NCBI GenBank assembly: GCA_947572235.1
Contig: CANPBB010000001.1
Coordinates: forward strand, 1,620-65,619
Length of the DNA stretch: 64,000 nucleotides
From: an uncultured Clostridia bacterium
GTDB lineage: Bacteria; Bacillota; Clostridia; Oscillospirales; Oscillospiraceae
Reading direction: 5' to 3'
In this document: positions 5,790 through 61,829 of the stretch, in pieces
Position numbering within the stretch: position 1 is the stretch's first letter
How the letters are laid out: every line of letters begins with the position of its first letter
Position numbers and translations under genes: made by a program
Notes under the pieces: generated by a model
Database searches by the model: none
The model's input: only the letters and a program-made list of their open reading frames with translations
What the model was told of the DNA's origin: nothing

Positions 5790-5935
5790 TACGTCTTGCA
5801 GGGGCGGGTACCACCCGCCCGCTCTGACGCAGCACACGGTACTGTCGTGCGGGCGGATGATATCCGCCCCTACAAGGTGTCGGGTCCCGTATGACAAGGG
5901 TGGGGAAACCAAAGGTTCCCCCACCCTCTGTGGGT
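5790..5935. repeat. REP-like GTAG/GCAG hairpin cluster between the SBP and ATPase genes
   Basis: TGCAGGGGCGGGTACCACCCGCCCGC (5797-5822); GGGCGGATGATATCCGCCCCTACA (5859-5882, opposite orientation); GGGTGGGGAAACCAAAGGTTCCCCCACCC hairpin. Confidence 0.7.
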
Positions 5936-35442: not shown

Positions 35443-35594
35443 AGGCAGCTGATGGTTCCCGCCTTCTAAGCGGCCTTTTGCTGGCTTTTGGGCTGCGCCA
35501 AAGGTCAGCCGTCCCCAAAAGCGATCCCCCGTTCCGCGCCGCCGCGGCGCAAAAAAGCACCGTGCCTCACCGGGGCACCACAAGGAGAACCACC

Positions 35595-49827: not shown

Positions 49828-51243
49828 TTAAAGGCTCTCATAGACAATTTTGTTCAGGGCGCTGATGTAGGCGCGGATGGAGGCGCCGATGATGTCGGTG
49901 GAGATGCCGTTGCCGGAGTAGAGCCGGCCGCCGGAGCGGAGCTTCACCAGCGCGGAGCCCATAGCCTCCCGGCCCTCGGTGACAGTCTGGATCTGGAAGT
50001 CATCCAGCTCGTAGTGGTGGCCGATGATCTGCTCGATGGCCAAAAACGCCGCGTCCACCGGGCCGTCCCCCATGCTGACGCCCTGGAGCTTCTTCCCGTC
50101 CCGCTCCAAGGTGATATTGGCCATGGCGGCCACCCGGTTGCCGTTAGTCACCACATACTGGTCGATCCGATAGGTGGACGGCACTTGGAAAGCGGAGGTG
50201 GCGACGATGGCCTCCAGCTCCTTCACCCCCACAAAGTGCTTCTTGTCGGCGATACGGCGGAAGGCCTCGTAGACCTTGGCGGTGTCCTCCTCACCGAGGT
50301 CATAGCCCATCTGCTTGACCACCTTGGCCACCTCGCCGATGTCGTCCCCGGCGCTGAGGCAGACCCCTGCCATCTCCTCCTGGACGCCGCTGTCGAAGGG
50401 GGAGGTGCTTGACCGCTCGTTCTGCATCCGCCACTGGAGCTGTTTGGCCACCCGCACCAGCTCCGTGGTGCGAAGGCGCGTCCGGATACCGCAGCTCTCC
50501 CCCCGCGCGGTGACGAAGGCGGCAAAGTCCTCCAGCAGCACCGTGTGCAGGGGACTGACGGTGGTCTTGACCACCTCGGCCCCGGCGGCCACCGCGGCGG
50601 CGGCGCAGGCCACGGACATCTTCAGCTCGTCGCTGAGCTCCACGCCGAGGCGCACCCGCTCCAGCGCCGGCGTGCTCTCCCGGAGGGTGCTGAGGAAGGC
50701 CTCCCACTCGAAGGGGGTCATCACCCCGGCGGTGTCACAGAGGGTGATCTCCTCGGCCCCGGCCTCCACCGCAGCGGTGAGGACCTCGCTGAGGAAGGCG
50801 CCCTCCGCCCGGGTGGCGTCCAAGGCGGAGAGGGCCACATGCTCGGTGTAGTACCGGGCCTTCCGCACCAGAGCGGCGGTGAGCTCCACAACGGCGGGCC
50901 CCTTCCTGTGGCAGAGGTACTCCATCTGGATGGCGGAGACGGGCATCAGCACCTGAAGGGCGGGGGACTTGGCGGCCTTCACGCTCTCCCAGGCCTCGGT
51001 GACGCTGTCCTCGCTCATCCCCACGCTGGCCATCACGGCGGCGGAGGCAACCACAGAGGCAATGGTCTTGTTGGTGAGCACATCGGCCTCCTGGCCGTCG
51101 GAGATGGGGGGCAGCTCGATCCGGTCCACGCGGAGCCGGTCCAAGGACCGGGCCAGCTCAATGCGCTCCTTAAAGCTCAGCGCCGCGGCGGACTGATTGG
51201 CCACCTCTCGGAGCGTGATGTCTGCAATTTGAATGGTTTTCAT
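49828..51243 (-). CDS. LeuA/CimA-family (HMGL-like TIM barrel plus LeuA allosteric domain) protein lacking canonical catalytic motifs
   Basis: Start MKTIQIADITLREV behind GAAGGAGA. DTAGVMTP. C-terminal LeuA-dimer-like GDGPVDAAF...GISTDIIGASIRAYISALNK. RDGEQ and HxHNDxG are not present. Confidence 0.85.
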   Translation of the reverse strand: MKTIQIADITLREVANQSAAALSFKERIELARSLDRLRVDRIELPPISDGQEADVLTNKTIASVVASAAVMASVGMSEDSVTEAWESVKAAKSPALQVLMPVSAIQMEYLCHRKGPAVVELTAALVRKARYYTEHVALSALDATRAEGAFLSEVLTAAVEAGAEEITLCDTAGVMTPFEWEAFLSTLRESTPALERVRLGVELSDELKMSVACAAAAVAAGAEVVKTTVSPLHTVLLEDFAAFVTARGESCGIRTRLRTTELVRVAKQLQWRMQNERSSTSPFDSGVQEEMAGVCLSAGDDIGEVAKVVKQMGYDLGEEDTAKVYEAFRRIADKKHFVGVKELEAIVATSAFQVPSTYRIDQYVVTNGNRVAAMANITLERDGKKLQGVSMGDGPVDAAFLAIEQIIGHHYELDDFQIQTVTEGREAMGSALVKLRSGGRLYSGNGISTDIIGASIRAYISALNKIVYESL

Positions 51244-51264
51244 AGGGTGTTCTCCTTCTCTGAT

Positions 51265-51581
51265 GAAAAATAAAAGCGTCCCAAAGACAGAACATACTGT
51301 CTCTGGGACGATAATGGACATTACCGCGGTACCACCCGGATTTGCGCCAAAGGGCGCACACTTATGGGACTCCAGCAAGTCCCTGCCTCTGATAACGGGG
51401 GCCTCCGTGGCCGCCTACTCGCTGGGCGCGCCGCGCCCGCTTTGGGGGACCCTGCTCCAGTGCCAGCCGCCAGACTGCCGCTCCCGGCTCGCACCACCCG
51501 CCGGTTCTCTGAAAGCTGACAAACGTCTGACATAACACCTTCTAAGCATGATATCTTTATTATTTCGGGTTTTGAGGGAAT
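51265..51581 (-). promoter_or_regulatory. T-box riboswitch leader
   Basis: Minus strand has AGAGA, GGGUGGUGCGAGCC, CCCGUUAUC (F-box-like), AAAUCCGGGUGGUACCGCGG (T-box core, 51343-51324), and terminator hairpin CGUCCCAGAGACAG...CUGUCUUUGGGACG plus a U-run. Confidence 0.8.
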
Positions 51582-51587
51582 GTAGGG

Positions 51588-51616
51588 ATTTTACCACACG
51601 GGGTGGAGGCTGTCAA
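51588..51616 (-). promoter_or_regulatory. Sigma-A-type promoter of the T-box leader
   Basis: Minus strand reads TTGACA, 17 nt, TAAAAT. Confidence 0.6.
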
Positions 51617-52345
51617 GAGGGTTTTTTGTGGGGGGGGAGGTGCCCGGCAGGGCACGGTGCTTTTTTCGCGCCGCCGCGGCGCGATTTGGGGACGGGGGTT
51701 TCGCCCCCCGGGGCGACCTGCTTTTCTCGCACGAGAAAAGTAGGCAAAAGCGCGCTTAGGTGTCCGCTCAGGCGGGCTTTAGCCCCCCGCAGGGGGGCAC
51801 AGCCCTGATTCGCGTCCCCCTAAGAACCCCAAGACGCGGCGCAGCTTCGGTAGACTGGTGCGTAGGTTTACTGCGAGCTTCGGACGCGGCGGCGGTAGCT
51901 CTCGCAAAGCAGATGGTACTGGCGAGCGTCCCCCCGTCTTTAGTCCTGCTATAAACCGCCGCTGCCGCTCTGCCTGCCTCGCTTCGACTTGCCTCCGAAA
52001 CTTGAAGGTGGTTTCGCTGTTCGTTGTGCGGCAAATGCCGCCGTACTTGCCGATAATTGTTGTTGTTACGCAAATCTCCGTAGGGCGCGGCAACCCGGCG
52101 CGCCGTTCTTCGTCCACCGGGATGCTCCAACAAACCACCCGTAGGGGCCGGTGTCCTCACCGGTTCACCCCCTAACACCCACCGCACCTCCAATACACCG
52201 TCCCCCGTTAATCGGAATGCTTCGGTAAAACGTGTGTAGGGGCGCACATTGTGCGCCCGCTCTATCGACGCCCGCCGCACTGGGAAGGACAGGCGCACTG
52301 TCCCCGCCGGCTGGGGTGCTCCGATAAGCCGTCCCATATGGCCGT
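51617..52345. repeat. Gene-free array of GC-rich hairpins / REP-like units, including a roughly 300-bp mosaic element
   Basis: CGTAGGGCGCGGCAACCCGGCGCGCC (52079-52104), CGTAGGGGCCGGTGTCCTCACCGG (52140-52163), TGTAGGGGCGCACATTGTGCGCCCGC (52235-52260). 51745-52050 matches 59591-59893 in inverse orientation. Confidence 0.75.
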
Positions 52346-52357
52346 CCCCCGTCCGCT

Positions 52358-58100: not shown

Positions 58101-58799
58101 TGCAAGCTGGTGGCAGAGATTCTGGCCCAGAAGGAGTACCTGAACAAGAAGTCTGTGTGGATCTTCGGCGGCGACGGCTGGGCCTACGACATCGGCTACG
58201 GCGGTCTGGACCACGTGCTCGCCAGCGGCGAGGATGTGAACGTCTTCGTCTTTGACACCGAGGTCTACTCCAACACCGGCGGCCAGGCCTCCAAGGCCTC
58301 CAACATCGGCCAGGTGGCCCAGTTCGCCGCGGCCGGCAAGGAGATGAAGAAGAAGAGCCTCAGCGAGATCGCCATGCAGTACGGCTACGTGTACGTGGCC
58401 CAGGTGGCCATGGGTGCCAACCCCGCCCAGACCATTAAGGCCATCACCGAGGCCGAGGCCTACCACGGCCCGTCCCTGATCATCGGCTACGCCCCCTGTG
58501 AGATGCACTCCATCAAGGGTGGCATGATGAACTGCCAGAAGGAGATGAAGCGTGCGGTTGAGTGCGGCTACTGGAACATGTTCCGCTTCAACCCCGCCGC
58601 CGAGGGCGACAAGAAGTTCATCCTTGACAGCAAGGCCCCCGCCGGCGGCTACCGCGAGTTCCTGCTCAACGAGGCCCGCTATGCCCGCCTGACCCGGGAG
58701 TTCCCGGAGCGTGCCGAGGTTCTGTTCGCCAGAAACGAGGAGGCGGCCAAGGAGCGCTACGAGCATCTGATGAAGCTCACCGAGCTGTATAAGGGCTAA
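55131..58799 (+). CDS. nifJ: Pyruvate:ferredoxin (flavodoxin) oxidoreductase
   Basis: About 1222 aa. MDGNNAAAHVSYAFSEVAAIYPITPSS; two 4Fe-4S ferredoxin motifs (CIQCNTCAYVCP, CMGCGVCVEAC); TPP-binding GGDGWAYDIG. AGGAGGA SD. Confidence 0.96.
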   Translation: MARKFKSMDGNNAAAHVSYAFSEVAAIYPITPSSPMADLVDQWSANGLKNIFGTQVKVVEMQSEAGAAGAVHGSLGAGALTSTYTASQGLLLMIPNMYKIAAEQLPTVFHVSARTVSTHALNIFGDHSDVMACRQTGFAMLAEGNVQEVMDLSPVAHLSAISGKVPFINFFDGFRTSHEIQKVAVWDFEDLKEMCDMEAVEAFRRHALNPEHPNTRGSHENGDIFFQHREACNKYYDELPAVVEKYMGKINEKLGTNYKLFNYYGAPDADRVIIAMGSICDVAEEVIDYMNARGEKVGLVKVRLYRPFAADKLIAAIPASTKKIAVLDRTKEPGALGEPLYLDVVSALANAGKNDVKVIGGRYGLGSKDTPPASVFAVYEELKLDNPRRQFTIGIVDDVTNLSLPEKEAPNTAAEGTIECKFWGLGGDGTVGANKNSIKIIGDHTDKYIQAYFQYDSKKTGGVTISHLRFGDKPIRSPYYINKADFVACHNPSYVTKGFKMVNDVKPGGVFMINCQWDFDELCHHLNAEAKQYIAKNNIQLYTINAIDLAAQIGMGKRTNTILQSAFFTLAKVMPQAEAIQYMKDAATKSYSKKGMDVVEMNHKAIDAGATAFVKIDVPADWANAVDEKKGHDLEGKPELVKMVKDILEPIGRMDGDSLPVSVFMPHVDGQFEQGASAYEKRGVAVAVPVWDASKCIQCNTCAYVCPHATIRAFALTEEEVKNAPAGLSAVDIKAGKGKGVYQYAIGVSPLDCMGCGVCVEACLAKDKAIVMAPQESQAGQQAVWNYLVKTSKKADMQDTTVKGSQFMQPMLEFSGSCAGCAETSYARLVTQLFGERMYVSNATGCSSIWGGPAATSPYCTDADGRGPAWCNSLFEDNAEHGLGMYTGQKTIRNNLAAKTKALIAIDWALPALKEAAQKWLDTMDDGAANQEAAKAYIAALEQSICTIDEVTAFVSSPAAKDTFGDKLGEMQAHAKALKESGAKFCDCDACKLVAEILAQKEYLNKKSVWIFGGDGWAYDIGYGGLDHVLASGEDVNVFVFDTEVYSNTGGQASKASNIGQVAQFAAAGKEMKKKSLSEIAMQYGYVYVAQVAMGANPAQTIKAITEAEAYHGPSLIIGYAPCEMHSIKGGMMNCQKEMKRAVECGYWNMFRFNPAAEGDKKFILDSKAPAGGYREFLLNEARYARLTREFPERAEVLFARNEEAAKERYEHLMKLTELYKG

Positions 58800-58830
58800 G
58801 CGCAGCGCGAAATTAAAAACCGGTCCCATG

Positions 58831-58870
58831 GGATCCCCGTGTGCTGTGCACACGGGGGTCCGTTTCCTTC
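58831..58870 (+). terminator. Terminator-like hairpin after nifJ
   Basis: GGATCCCCGTGTGC-TGT-GCACACGGGGGTCC. The T-tract is weak. Confidence 0.5.
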
Positions 58871-60190
58871 AAAAAAGAGCGTTGTTTTCGCGTGTTTTTT
58901 GATAAAAAACGGGGGAATTCCCCTGTTTTTGAGGAATATGTTTGCATCGAAACAGGCAACTTGTTGCACGCTCCCCCGCCGGAGAAGCGGGGGGAGGAGC
59001 GTGAGATCCGCCCCTACGATGGTTGATCGGGCCATCCCGGTGGACGGGGGACGGCGCGCCGGGGGATATGCCCTGCCGGTTGACGGGGAGCGGCACGCCG
59101 GGGGTGGGGAACGGGCCGGTGAGGATACCAGCCCCTGCGGGTGGGCTATCGGGAGTGCCTGCGAGGAATCCCGCCACCGCCGTTCGGCGGCCCCCTCATC
59201 TCGGCCTAAGAGCCTGTTTAAAATCTTCCTGCGCATGTCTTGGCGGCGTATTTTCCGCCCTGACTGCGTTAAAAATCCTTGCCATCCGTCAGGATGCCTG
59301 CGGATTTTTGCCTTGCAGGGCAAAAAATCCACTCGCCAATCCATACACGTCGAGATATTAAACAGGCTCTTAGAGCCGCCCTTTGGGGCGGTTGGCCTCG
59401 AAACGTGCCTGTGGGCGCCGCCTTCAGCAAGGGAGCCAGGGGGCGAAACGCCATAATCGCCCAGCCCCGGTGCGGTGGGTGTCCAGAGAGCGGACGCACA
59501 ATACCCGCAGGGATACGCCGCATCTGTAAGGGGCAGAGCCGCCAACGGCTGCGCTGTGTGCGCCCCTACAGACGGTATACTGACAGTACCGGAAGGCACG
59601 GCGGCATTTGCTGCACTGGGCCGGAGGTTTGACCTCTAAGTTTCTAAAACAAGTCGGGCAACGGAGGCAGAGCGGCAGCGGACGCCTACAGCATGGCCAT
59701 AGACGGAGGGACGCTCGCCAGTACCGTCCCGCTGAGCGGGAGCAACCGCCGCCGCGCGGGGTGCGCTGAGGTTGGATGAGCGCCGGGCTGTCGAGGGGGC
59801 TATGGTTCTTAGGGAGGGAGCGAATAAGGGCTGCGTCCCACCGCGGGTGGGGCTAAAGCCCGCCTGAGCGGACTCCCAAGCGCGCTTTTGCAGGCTTGGT
59901 CAGAGAGCCAAAAAGGAAAGGATGTGTGAAGGAAAACCATTCGGTTTTCCTTCATGTTCAATCAACCCGCCCCAGCGACAGATTTTGGCATCCCGCCAAA
60001 ATCTGTTGGGTCTGGGGGCCCTGTCCCCAGACCCAGTCGCTTGGGGCGAAACCTCCGTTCCCAAACCGCGCGGAAAAGTCTTGGTACTGCGCCGCAGTAC
60101 CCCCCGCCGCGGGACGCGACGGCAGAAGGGGGCCAGCCCCGCCCTGCCCCGGCCCCGCCCTACCCCAACCCAACTCTTCTGCCAAAAAGA
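58871..60190. repeat. 1.3-kb gene-free array of consecutive GC-rich hairpins / REP-like units plus a mosaic element
   Basis: Dozens of short palindromes, e.g. GAAGGAAAACCATTCGGTTTTCCTTC, CAGATTTTGGCATCCCGCCAAAATCTG, GGTACTGCGCCGCAGTACC. GTAG/GCAG-GGGC units near 59010, 59140 and 59565. Confidence 0.75.
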
Positions 60191-60203
60191 AAGGAGCACC
60201 ACT

Positions 60204-60821
60204 ATGCCATCCTGTCAAGACCATCTGAAAACCGAGCGCCGTGCCGCCGGCGGAGGGATCGGCCTGCTGATTGCAGGCGTCCTCCTCCTTCTCTTGGGCG
60301 CCGCAGGCATCACCTACGCCGCCACCCACTACACCCCTGAGGCCACCGCCGCCGCGATATGGGGCTTTCCCGGCGCTGTTTTAGGCGTCATATTTGTCGT
60401 GATCGGCGCCCTGCGCCGGCGCCGGCGGGCCGCTATGGACCGGGATGCGGAGCAGAGCCCGCTGGTGGCCAGTATACGGCGGAGCCTGCCGCCGGAGCAG
60501 GCGGGACTGCCGGTGGGACAGCTCTTTGCGCTGGTGGATCGGGATATCGCCTCGGGAGAGGCCTTTGGCGGCGTCACCGTGGGCCGGGAGTGGGTGATCA
60601 TGGTCAACTGCGCACTCCGGACGGAACGCATCCGGGGGATAGCCCTGAAAAAGAAGCAAAACCGCACCAGCCATGTGCGGATGAACACCTATGTGGTGGC
60701 CGTCACCGACGGCTCCGTGCAGGCGGAGGCGGAGTTTGCCACCAGAGAGCACGCCTCGGAGTGCTTGGCCGCGCTGCAAAAAATCTGTCCCGCCGCCCAA
60801 GCGGCGGCGGCCGACGAGTAG
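60204..60821 (+). CDS. Hypothetical two-TM membrane protein (205 aa)
   Basis: AAAGGAG SD. TM hairpin, then a soluble domain. The longer ORF-track start reads through repeat DNA. Confidence 0.65.
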   Translation: MPSCQDHLKTERRAAGGGIGLLIAGVLLLLLGAAGITYAATHYTPEATAAAIWGFPGAVLGVIFVVIGALRRRRRAAMDRDAEQSPLVASIRRSLPPEQAGLPVGQLFALVDRDIASGEAFGGVTVGREWVIMVNCALRTERIRGIALKKKQNRTSHVRMNTYVVAVTDGSVQAEAEFATREHASECLAALQKICPAAQAAAADE

Positions 60822-61478: not shown

Positions 61479-61489
61479 GAAGCGGAGGG

Positions 61490-61700
61490 CGTCCCTTGGG
61501 GCGGGCGGACGGCCTGCCGGAGCGTTTTGTCCGGCGGGGACGGCGCGCCCTACGGGCGGGCTATCGGGAGTGCGGTGGATATCGGGGAACAGGCCGGTGA
61601 GGACACCGGCCCCTACGGGTGGGTTTGACGGACCATCCCGGCGCCGGGAGAACGGTGCCCTGCCGGGCGCTTTTCGCGCTGCCCCAGCGGCGGAATCCCC
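61490..61700. repeat. REP-like hairpin cluster upstream of the mfd promoter
   Basis: GGACGGCGCGCCCTACGGGCGGGCTATCGGGAGTGC and GGCCGGTGAGGACACCGGCCCCTACGGGTGGG match modules at 59050-59170 and 52080-52165. Confidence 0.7.
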
Positions 61701-61711
61701 CCTTCTTCCCC

Positions 61712-61740
61712 TTGACAAATCGGGAAAAAACCGGTACCAT
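61712..61740 (+). promoter_or_regulatory. Sigma-A-type promoter for mfd
   Basis: TTGACA, 17 nt, TACCAT. Confidence 0.45.
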
Positions 61741-61829
61741 GTCTCCCGGAATAGAGAGAACAGGCACACTCCCCCGTAAGGCGGAGTGCGCCTATTACCC
61801 TTTGGTGAGAGAGAAAGAGGAGGTGCGTG

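Follow-up and report, generated by a model that had tools for sequence, protein, structure and literature searches.

The described systems closest to the repeats reported here are the REP (repetitive extragenic palindromic) sequences and bacterial interspersed mosaic elements (BIMEs) of Proteobacteria. In these a GTAG tetranucleotide stands directly 5′ of a GC-rich imperfect palindrome of 19-22 nucleotides (nt), several sequence classes share the same head, and the units are extragenic, form mosaics with other short motifs, carry neither terminal inverted repeats (TIRs) nor target-site duplications (TSDs), and persist across related species. A survey of GTAG- and CGTC-tagged repeats reported the GTAG type from Proteobacteria, Cyanobacteria, Chloroflexi and the Planctomycetes-Verrucomicrobia-Chlamydiae (PVC) group, with no Firmicutes among them (PMC3733652). 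Clostridia have been reported to possess Group 1 REP-associated tyrosine transposases (RAYTs) and IS200-type TnpA (PMC5581495, PMC6006769). In this work we analyse a 64,000-nt stretch of DNA (the window) from an uncultured Clostridia bacterium, in which the gene-free tract downstream of nifJ is a nest of dispersed, lineage-specific repeats. Its small modules share the above features with REP sequences and BIMEs; the main component is one degenerate copy of a folded composite element of ~0.35-0.55 kb that had not been described before and is found dozens of times in a genome. An earlier reading made from the sequence alone held that REP-like arrays would be unusual in a Firmicute; the host does belong to this phylum (Oscillospiraceae), which is missing from the 2013 survey of GTAG repeats (PMC3733652).

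The tract runs from 58800 to 60203 (1404 nt), slightly longer than first stated, and separates the stop codon of the nifJ/PFOR gene (58797-58799) from the ATG of the next open reading frame (ORF) at 60204. It is non-coding, and the statement that it lacks coding composition was borne out: the GC contents of the three codon positions (GC1/2/3) are flat in its ORFs (0.58-0.65), compared with a GC2 of 0.40-0.51 and a GC3 of 0.79-0.92 in the flanking genes, and the longest six-frame fragments have no Pfam match at any family's cut-off, though one of them gave a sub-threshold match to BiPBP_C (13.7 bits at E = 0.061, where the cut-off is 26.8). The tract could also be seen as the remains of a degraded protein-coding gene, as public gene callers predict a 205-amino-acid (aa) ORF at 58839-59456 and ORFs of 100-267 aa are found on both strands. 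We give this idea practically no credence and regard it as effectively excluded: besides the flat composition and the want of any frame with a Pfam match at the family cut-off, the translated core of the element matches just 4 short hypothetical ORFs among 5.8 billion proteins. A conserved coding frame would have overturned the sequence-only reading. Instead, the comparison of copies shows frame-breaking 1-nt indels and paired changes in stems. The 205-aa call (plus strand) lies wholly on repeats, as does a public 189-aa call at 51768-52337 (minus strand). Neither has a Pfam match at the family cut-off, the codon-position GC of the 205-aa call is flat, and both are almost certainly spurious.

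A comparison of the window with itself shows that the tract is not unique. A second long gap between genes holds, in reverse orientation, a stretch (52055-51744) with 71% identity to positions 59587-59891, and shorter collinear matches lie on both sides. We call the copy in the tract copy B and the other copy A (51671-52350, minus strand); the latter is a short variant with its upstream REP modules, and has a comM-like gene on one side and the promoter of a leuA-like gene on the other. The third full copy is situated just outside the window, ~6.3 kb downstream of 60204 (L017:16321-16673), where it is flanked by a prsA-like rotamase gene and by an SLH-domain gene, so that three full copies are found within 15 kb. 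In addition, a partial copy that comprises the 3′ hairpins only (35465-35535, plus strand; nhmmer E = 7.8e-09, model positions 312-382) sits in a spacer of the infB-rbfA-truB gene region. Copies A and B are on opposite strands. A relation between orientation and replication was considered and dropped, as the window has a positive GC skew along most of its length, with no switch of the origin or terminus type.

The sequence-only reading had described the tract as a chain of palindromes with GTAG-headed, REP-like units. The seven palindromes that it listed are all exact and lie where it placed them (58908-58927, 59242-59259, 59305-59326, 59928-59953, 59979-60005, 60008-60034 and 60083-60101). 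They do not belong together, however: four are in the 3′ tail of the element, two are in a 154-nt insertion and one is a terminator-like hairpin in a single-copy spacer. Nor does a REP array make up most of the tract: ~540 nt of it (59585-60125) belong to a single copy of a much larger multi-copy element, whose core of ~330 nt is conserved and folded. The REP interpretation is thus partly right for the small modules but misses the main component.

Further copies were found in relatives. A 20-mer common to copies A and B has 16 exact matches among species-representative genomes, all in one metagenome-assembled genome (MAG), the close relative "Oscillospiraceae bacterium ABMPRH_162_1_1". One of its contigs (L003, 7.8 kb) is collinear with 52.3-59.0 kb of the window at 90-96% identity, and copy A is 96% identical to L003:7104-7713. 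This MAG has at least 16 further copies beside unrelated housekeeping genes. Taking all copies together, the neighbours include genes for a radical SAM enzyme, a pseudouridine synthase, a GH3 glycosidase, a MerR regulator, a class II aminoacyl-tRNA synthetase, a Fe-only hydrogenase, RecD2, mfd and a peptidase. Several contigs end within element copies (L003 at both ends, L006, L012, L019 and L024), and MAG-based copy numbers are therefore underestimates. Altogether, profile searches recovered ~25 full or partial copies among the sequences examined. Searching a metagenome collection with a three-box pattern gave 5 loci, of which only four are true copies; the fifth (L038) was rejected as a chance match within a gene. 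The family is confined to a rare lineage. Matches to copy A were absent from phage and plasmid collections (blastn), and two pattern scans of viral contigs for the core gave none. The copies exist as short 3′, long 3′ and clean internal-deletion variants with varying sets of upstream modules, and decayed, truncated and internally deleted copies are common. Copy B is itself the most degenerate of the full-length copies, with an nhmmer score of 221 bits against 277-410 for the others, and this lowest score suggests that the individual copy is not under constraint.

This distribution bears on a more conventional reading, that the tract is an untranslated region (UTR) specific to this locus, either a 3′ UTR to nifJ or a 5′ leader to the operon that follows, with a regulatory role or as a source of small RNAs. 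The tract does lie between two genes on the same strand and ends 8 nt before a ribosome-binding site, and its folding goes far beyond that of shuffled sequence. Yet the same sequences occur at no fewer than 25 unrelated loci, a distribution that largely refutes the idea, and sister species have core-free spacers of 143 and 233 nt at this very locus. Two terminator-like hairpins separate nifJ from the repeats, and the copy found here is the most degenerate one. We hold a locus-specific UTR to be highly improbable and effectively excluded. In short, the tract is neither a gene nor a locus-specific regulator but a member of a modest new repeat family.

The core is more than a shared sequence. Across its copies, invariant boxes (CACGGCGGCATTTGC, GGCAGAGCGGCAGCGG, ACCGCCGCCGCG, GGGGTTCTTAGGGGG and GGGGCTAAAGCCCGCCTGAGCGGAC) alternate with variable stretches, and the copies differ by 1-nt indels and by paired stem changes. 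The region 59585-60125 folds more strongly than shuffled sequences on both strands (z = -4.2 and -4.9). When the alignment is folded, 77 pairs are predicted. Compensatory changes are seen in 7, mostly in the terminal hairpin, which exists in two fully complementary versions (5 compensated pairs). For 31 hand-picked pairs in 23 distinct copies, 96.9% of the cells are paired, compared with 42-56% when the partner is slid by 1-3 columns. Compensatory double changes affect 6 of the 31 pairs, a number equalled in 0/500 shuffles. The same holds between species: in the sister-species copy (L032) CTTAGG/CCTAAG is swapped for CAAGG/CCTTG, and one long hairpin of unrelated sequence stands in place of a bulged two-helix stem. 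The fold is supported by these results, the core helices being kept by compensatory changes.

Two further pairings were seen in the alignments. In A2 columns 317-362 (e.g. window 51745-51700, minus strand), the terminal hairpin has a loop (CGCGCG or GCTGTG) complementary to a segment just upstream of the hairpin (GCGCGC or CAGCC). Loop and segment covary, which hints at a pseudoknot or at two pairings that exclude each other. A long-range helix from a covariation scan (A5 columns 59-66 with 234-241) was rejected, as only U-G to C-G changes speak for it and a local hairpin is in competition with it.

A fold maintained in this way invites the reading that the ~330-nt core is a functional structured RNA family, spread through the RNA's own mobilization or through a benefit to the host. 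It could be a stand-alone guide or scaffold for an enzyme encoded by a transposon, akin to the omega-RNAs of IscB/TnpB or to the bridge RNAs of IS110 elements that target REPs, or a new large cis-acting RNA. In its favour are the compensatory conservation of helices within and between species, one loop that alternates between UGCG, GCAA and GUAA, which are stable tetraloop types in the core orientation only and the sole hint of RNA in that orientation, a mild same-strand bias with the upstream gene (17 versus 6, from crude gene calls), and the lack of TIRs and TSDs. The core also has a fixed site beside REP heads, which is reminiscent of REP-targeting insertion sequences (ISs). Against it, a promoter scan of the tract gave 0 sites and the copy alignments, on reading, have no conserved promoter-like motif. 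Rfam, including HEARO and transposon-linked motifs, gave no match: a search of the whole window with Rfam 15 at the gathering threshold returned 0 matches, and a permissive search (E up to 10) of the tract, copy A and the sister-species copy returned nothing credible, the top sub-threshold score being 23.6 bits against a cut-off of 40. A scan of the window for tRNA and tmRNA was likewise negative. No IscB, TnpB or IS110 gene is near any copy. Folding is about equal on the two strands (-98 versus -94 kcal/mol for the alignment), and G.U and A.C mismatches in the supported helices number 13 and 8, which is not a significant difference and indicates no strand asymmetry. The frequent decay, truncation and internal deletion of copies also speak against a functional RNA, and on balance we find this reading unlikely.

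We now turn to the small modules, for which the REP comparison was made. The 9-mer GTAGGGGCG occurs 7 times in the window against an expectation of 0.83, and 0/100 shuffles reach 7; 5/7 sites are intergenic, while intergenic bases make up 15.7% of the window. When the window and 16 loci of the related MAG are taken together and strict criteria are applied, GTAG is the most enriched tetranucleotide directly 5′ of hairpins of at least 7 bp (40 units, 4.06x); with looser hairpin criteria and the window alone it does not stand above other tetranucleotides. The REP-like units fall into three classes that all open with GTAGGG: GTAG-GGGCGCACAyyGTGCGCCC (class 1), GTAG-GGCGCGACGACCyCGGCGCGCC (class 2) and GTAG-GGGCCGGTGTCCTCACCGGCCC (class 3). 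Copy A is accompanied by one of each (class 1 at 52240-52258, class 3 at ~52141-52165 and class 2 at 52084-52104). Hence a repeated and mostly intergenic GTAG-palindrome family with at least three sequence classes does exist, enriched over shuffles in the window, as had been proposed. Both examples quoted in support of it are real, but neither falls within the tract: one is found at 52235-52258 (plus strand) and the other at 5851-5874 (minus strand), the latter being an isolated intergenic REP-like unit, TGTAGGGGCGGATATCATCCGCCC. The tract itself has its GTAG heads on the minus strand, with degenerate or split palindromes (59009-59017 and 59561-59569, with a GCAG variant at 59131-59139).

The arrangement of the units sets them apart from proteobacterial REP sequences. 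We counted 58 units in 184 kb, a density from a biased sample, as the loci were picked around core copies. Neighbouring units within 250 nt form 20 same-orientation pairs and 6 opposite ones, and within 700 nt upstream of cores 30/34 units are opposite to the core and 4 have the same orientation; downstream there are 0. Read in the core orientation, every module closes with "hairpin-CTAC" and is followed by another module or by the core. Of the proposed REP/BIME identity, the layout typical of REP/RAYT systems stands, with GTAG or a close variant directly ahead of an imperfect palindrome of 20-40 nt, whereas the units are mostly same-orientation tandems and not alternating BIMEs or inverted doublets of the REPIN type. 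The host, a member of the Bacillota (Clostridia), also differs, and the units here are tied in fixed polarity to a structured core of ~330 nt that has no REP counterpart. Like REP sequences, the units also occur in sister species (L032 and L033).

The element is present or absent at orthologous sites of close relatives, i.e. it turns over. Among same-species metagenome contigs that include the downstream ORF (n = 10), 7/7 that span the gap show the 1404 nt between nifJ and the ORF. In sister species, whose downstream protein is 74-79% identical, the same spacer is 143 nt with one GTAG unit and no core (L033), 233 nt with no core (L031), or 706 nt with REP modules and a short-variant core (L032). 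The single unit in the shortest of these (TGTAGGGGCGCGCACAGCGCGCCC, L033:225-248, plus strand) is opposite to the window's units there. Missing from the MAG orthologue of the tract are ~140 nt of modules, the 154-nt insertion and one further module; its core is ~80% identical to that of the tract, while the flanking spacer is 93% identical. A second example is the spacer 61479-61826, between a 214-aa ORF and mfd. It holds REP-like modules without a core (61532-61641, minus strand) and a lone terminal hairpin (ACGGTGCCCTGCCGGGCGC, ~61650-61670), whereas its MAG orthologue (L014:1606-2550) is ~700 nt longer, with a complete core included. Microhomology shared by the junctions, CAC(G/T)GTG, suggests that the core was deleted by slippage at this site in the window.

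What could spread such repeats? We propose, with a probability of roughly 0.6, that they are non-autonomous and move as hairpin-ended single-stranded DNA under the action of a Y1 (RAYT/IS200-type) transposase supplied in trans. In element orientation, the composite is made up of one or more modules of 60-125 nt (each closing with a GC hairpin plus CTAC), the ~330-nt core and a chain of terminal hairpins. An HUH enzyme of the Y1 type would recognize the hairpin-plus-tetranucleotide ends, and insertion 3′ of a short target would leave neither inverted terminal repeats nor a target duplication. Repeated insertion of this kind would build head-to-tail stacks of one orientation in which the core always comes last, and recombination and slippage between modules may later delete or reshuffle parts. 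In the tract, the nifJ terminators on one side and the ribosome-binding site of the next gene on the other enclose a safe space, where the repeats would have accumulated. The hairpins would be there for the needs of the spreading mechanism and not for this locus, and when read through the repeats would simply yield structured RNA. This model fits the hairpin-tetranucleotide ends, the lack of TIRs and target duplications (the core has neither), the one-orientation stacking and the position of the core at the close of the stack.

A number of observations weigh against this proposal. No transposase gene (Y1, RAYT or other) was seen in the window, in the 10-kb 3′ flank or beside any copy, and the same is true for reverse transcriptase, TnpB and IscB; this search used Pfam on called genes and covered the window up to roughly 43 kb and from roughly 50 kb onwards, the downstream 10-kb flank and 10 neighbours of MAG copies. 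Neither was a RAYT or Y1 gene seen among the 38 loci, whereas REP/RAYT systems have a single-copy RAYT gene with REPs on its flanks. A tblastn search of ~0.4 Mb with an IS200 TnpA also found nothing, although this test is weak. As no Y1 gene was found, the spreading step, and with it the mobilization by a RAYT put forward in the sequence-only reading, is one that we infer. Over ~10 nt the core lacks a sharp 5′ boundary, and the linker between CTAC and core varies with the class of the preceding REP, which means that no exact cleavage or insertion site is defined. The 3′ end of the core has GTAC or GCAC after the hairpin, not CTAC. Deletion can explain all of the presence/absence differences, no fresh insertion having been caught, and the conserved helices with their switches between UNCG- and GNRA-type loops suit a selected RNA equally well.

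The proposed spread by a Y1 enzyme can be compared with other mobile systems. Palindrome-associated transposable elements (PATEs), which are non-autonomous derivatives of IS200/IS605, and orphan omega-RNA/HEARO elements similarly have hairpin ends, lack TIRs and TSDs, and are found as multi-copy non-coding units of a few hundred nt with conserved secondary structure, at sites far from any transposase. Unlike these, the element described here has no sequence or covariance-model match to HEARO or Rfam and no recognizable guide-like variable end, and its copies have housekeeping neighbours with no tnpA, tnpB or iscB beside any of them. There is also a likeness to pneumococcal BOX, Correia, enterobacterial repetitive intergenic consensus (ERIC) and Bacillus cereus group bcr repeats. 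Those are likewise built of a few box types in variable number and order, fold strongly, are intergenic and often co-oriented with their neighbours, are limited to one lineage and have no assigned mobilizing enzyme. This is a likeness of kind only, with no sequence similarity, and our element differs in its much larger core, GTAG-tagged modules and high-GC Clostridia host. Within the modular interspersed repeats it is a new family, with REP-like heads in a phylum that had no documented ones.

A third comparison is with ISs that target REP sequences, such as IS621 of the IS110 family and IS1397 of the IS3 family. Our core, too, always follows closely downstream of a REP head, the relative orientation of the two being fixed, and a structured non-coding RNA and a lack of TIRs are also features of IS110-type elements. 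The likeness was checked by position statistics only; our element differs in that no recombinase gene was found and that the CTAC-to-core distance and linker vary. In a more specific version of the functional-RNA reading, the core is a new large structured RNA class with dozens of copies that aids its own spread, e.g. as a guide or bridge-type RNA that brings a recombinase or nuclease to the GTAG/CTAC head of REP hairpins. An RNA that targets GTAG/CTAC heads would explain why cores are found just downstream of REPs and in one orientation. We consider this version quite unlikely. If true, Bacillota would harbour a mobile system that is guided to REPs by RNA, and its non-autonomous, RNA-only copies would be far more numerous than the gene for the enzyme.

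The individual parts of the tract, from 5′ to 3′, illustrate how such a mosaic is put together. Directly after the nifJ stop codon is a hairpin that resembles an intrinsic terminator (58831-58861, plus strand; 14-bp stem and T-rich tail), which is kept in the MAG and in sister species. It is followed by the single-copy spacer (58862-58975), with 92-93% identity to the MAG locus L003 and no further copy found. This spacer hosts a second hairpin after nifJ, the terminator-like and possibly bidirectional palindrome AAAAACGGGGGAATTCCCCTGTTTTT (58905-58930). The first cluster of REP-like modules (58976-59201, minus strand) has a GTAG head that starts at 59017 and a degenerate GCAG head that starts at 59139; it resembles modules at 52094-52163 and 61548-61623 of the window and in many MAG loci, and the ~140 nt missing from the MAG orthologue belong to it. 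A 39-nt unit is tandemly duplicated at 59031-59104 (83% identical).

The next part, 59215-59377, consists of the 154-nt palindromic insertion (59215-59368) and, after it, the second of two 9-bp direct copies that differ at one position (CTAAGAGCC at 59206-59214 and CTTAGAGCC at 59369-59377). The insertion contains the palindromes GGCGGCGTATTTTCCGCC and TTTTTGCCTTGCAGGGCAAAAA, and its inverted 40-nt arms (59206-59245 and 59334-59373) are 78% complementary. Besides its absence from the MAG orthologue, the module that it splits is uninterrupted in L004 and L006 (CTCGGCCTAAGAGCC|GCCCC). Long inverted arms and a 9-bp duplication are what one would look for in classical MITEs (miniature inverted-repeat transposable elements), moved by cut-and-paste through a DDE transposase that recognizes TIRs. 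As an account of the repeats in general, MITEs are very unlikely: the core element and the REP-like modules have neither TIRs nor target duplications, and units are stacked head to tail in one orientation. Even for the insertion, no second copy was found in the window or in any locus from other strains. The MITE model fits the 154-nt insertion only.

Downstream of the insertion lies a second module cluster (59379-59584, minus strand), whose counterparts ahead of cores in L001, L028, L016, L008, L010, L007 and L011 show 88-92% identity to it. It includes a split class 1 REP with arms GGACGCACA (59492-59500) and TGTGCGCCC (59557-59565), ~56 nt apart, and the CTAC that comes after it (59566-59569) is a GTAG head on the minus strand. 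The core of copy B (59585-59913, plus strand) has four of the boxes, CACGGCGGCATTTGC, GGCAGAGCGGCAGCGG, ACCGCCGCCGCG and GGGGCTAAAGCCCGCCTGAGCGGAC. It is continued by the "long-variant" 3′ modules (59914-60071, plus strand), a chain with hairpins at 59928-59953, 59979-60005 and 60008-60034 that is also present in L013, L001, L006, L003, L011, L014 and L028. Its box GGGGCGAAACCTCCGTTCCCAAACCGCGC (60043-60071) is common to copy A at 51707-51679. The terminal hairpins of the element (60072-60125, plus strand) are GGTACTGCGCCGCAGTACC (60083-60101) and then the CCCCCCGCCGCGGGACGC segment; this 3′ end is common to L004, L008, L013, L016, L009 and L032. Finally, a C-rich spacer (60126-60203, plus strand) with the ribosome-binding site AAAGGAG leads to the ORF that starts at 60204, and is 72% identical to its MAG orthologue (L014:201-295). 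A C-rich 16-nt unit is repeated in tandem at 60133-60164 (88% identical).

One further observation was made beside copy A. A near-consensus sigma-70 promoter (TTGACA, 17 nt, TAAAAT) lies in the 51380-51620 region on the minus strand and precedes a GC-rich leader of ~200 nt of the leuA-like gene (49828-51378). This leader has no match to an Rfam family (T-box or leader) at threshold.

These repeats have practical consequences, as they break metagenome assemblies of this lineage and fill public databases with "hypothetical proteins" that are spurious, the 205-aa and 189-aa calls among them. With its large size, its fold, its many copies and its strict polarity to REP heads, the composite element offers a clean new case of such a non-coding unit, and makes the growth of such mosaics directly testable. 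If the GTAG hairpins are true REPs, then REP-type repeats extend to the Bacillota, a phylum that the 2013 survey does not list (PMC3733652). The lineage would then be a test case for whether Clostridial Y1 transposases maintain REP populations as they do in Proteobacteria.

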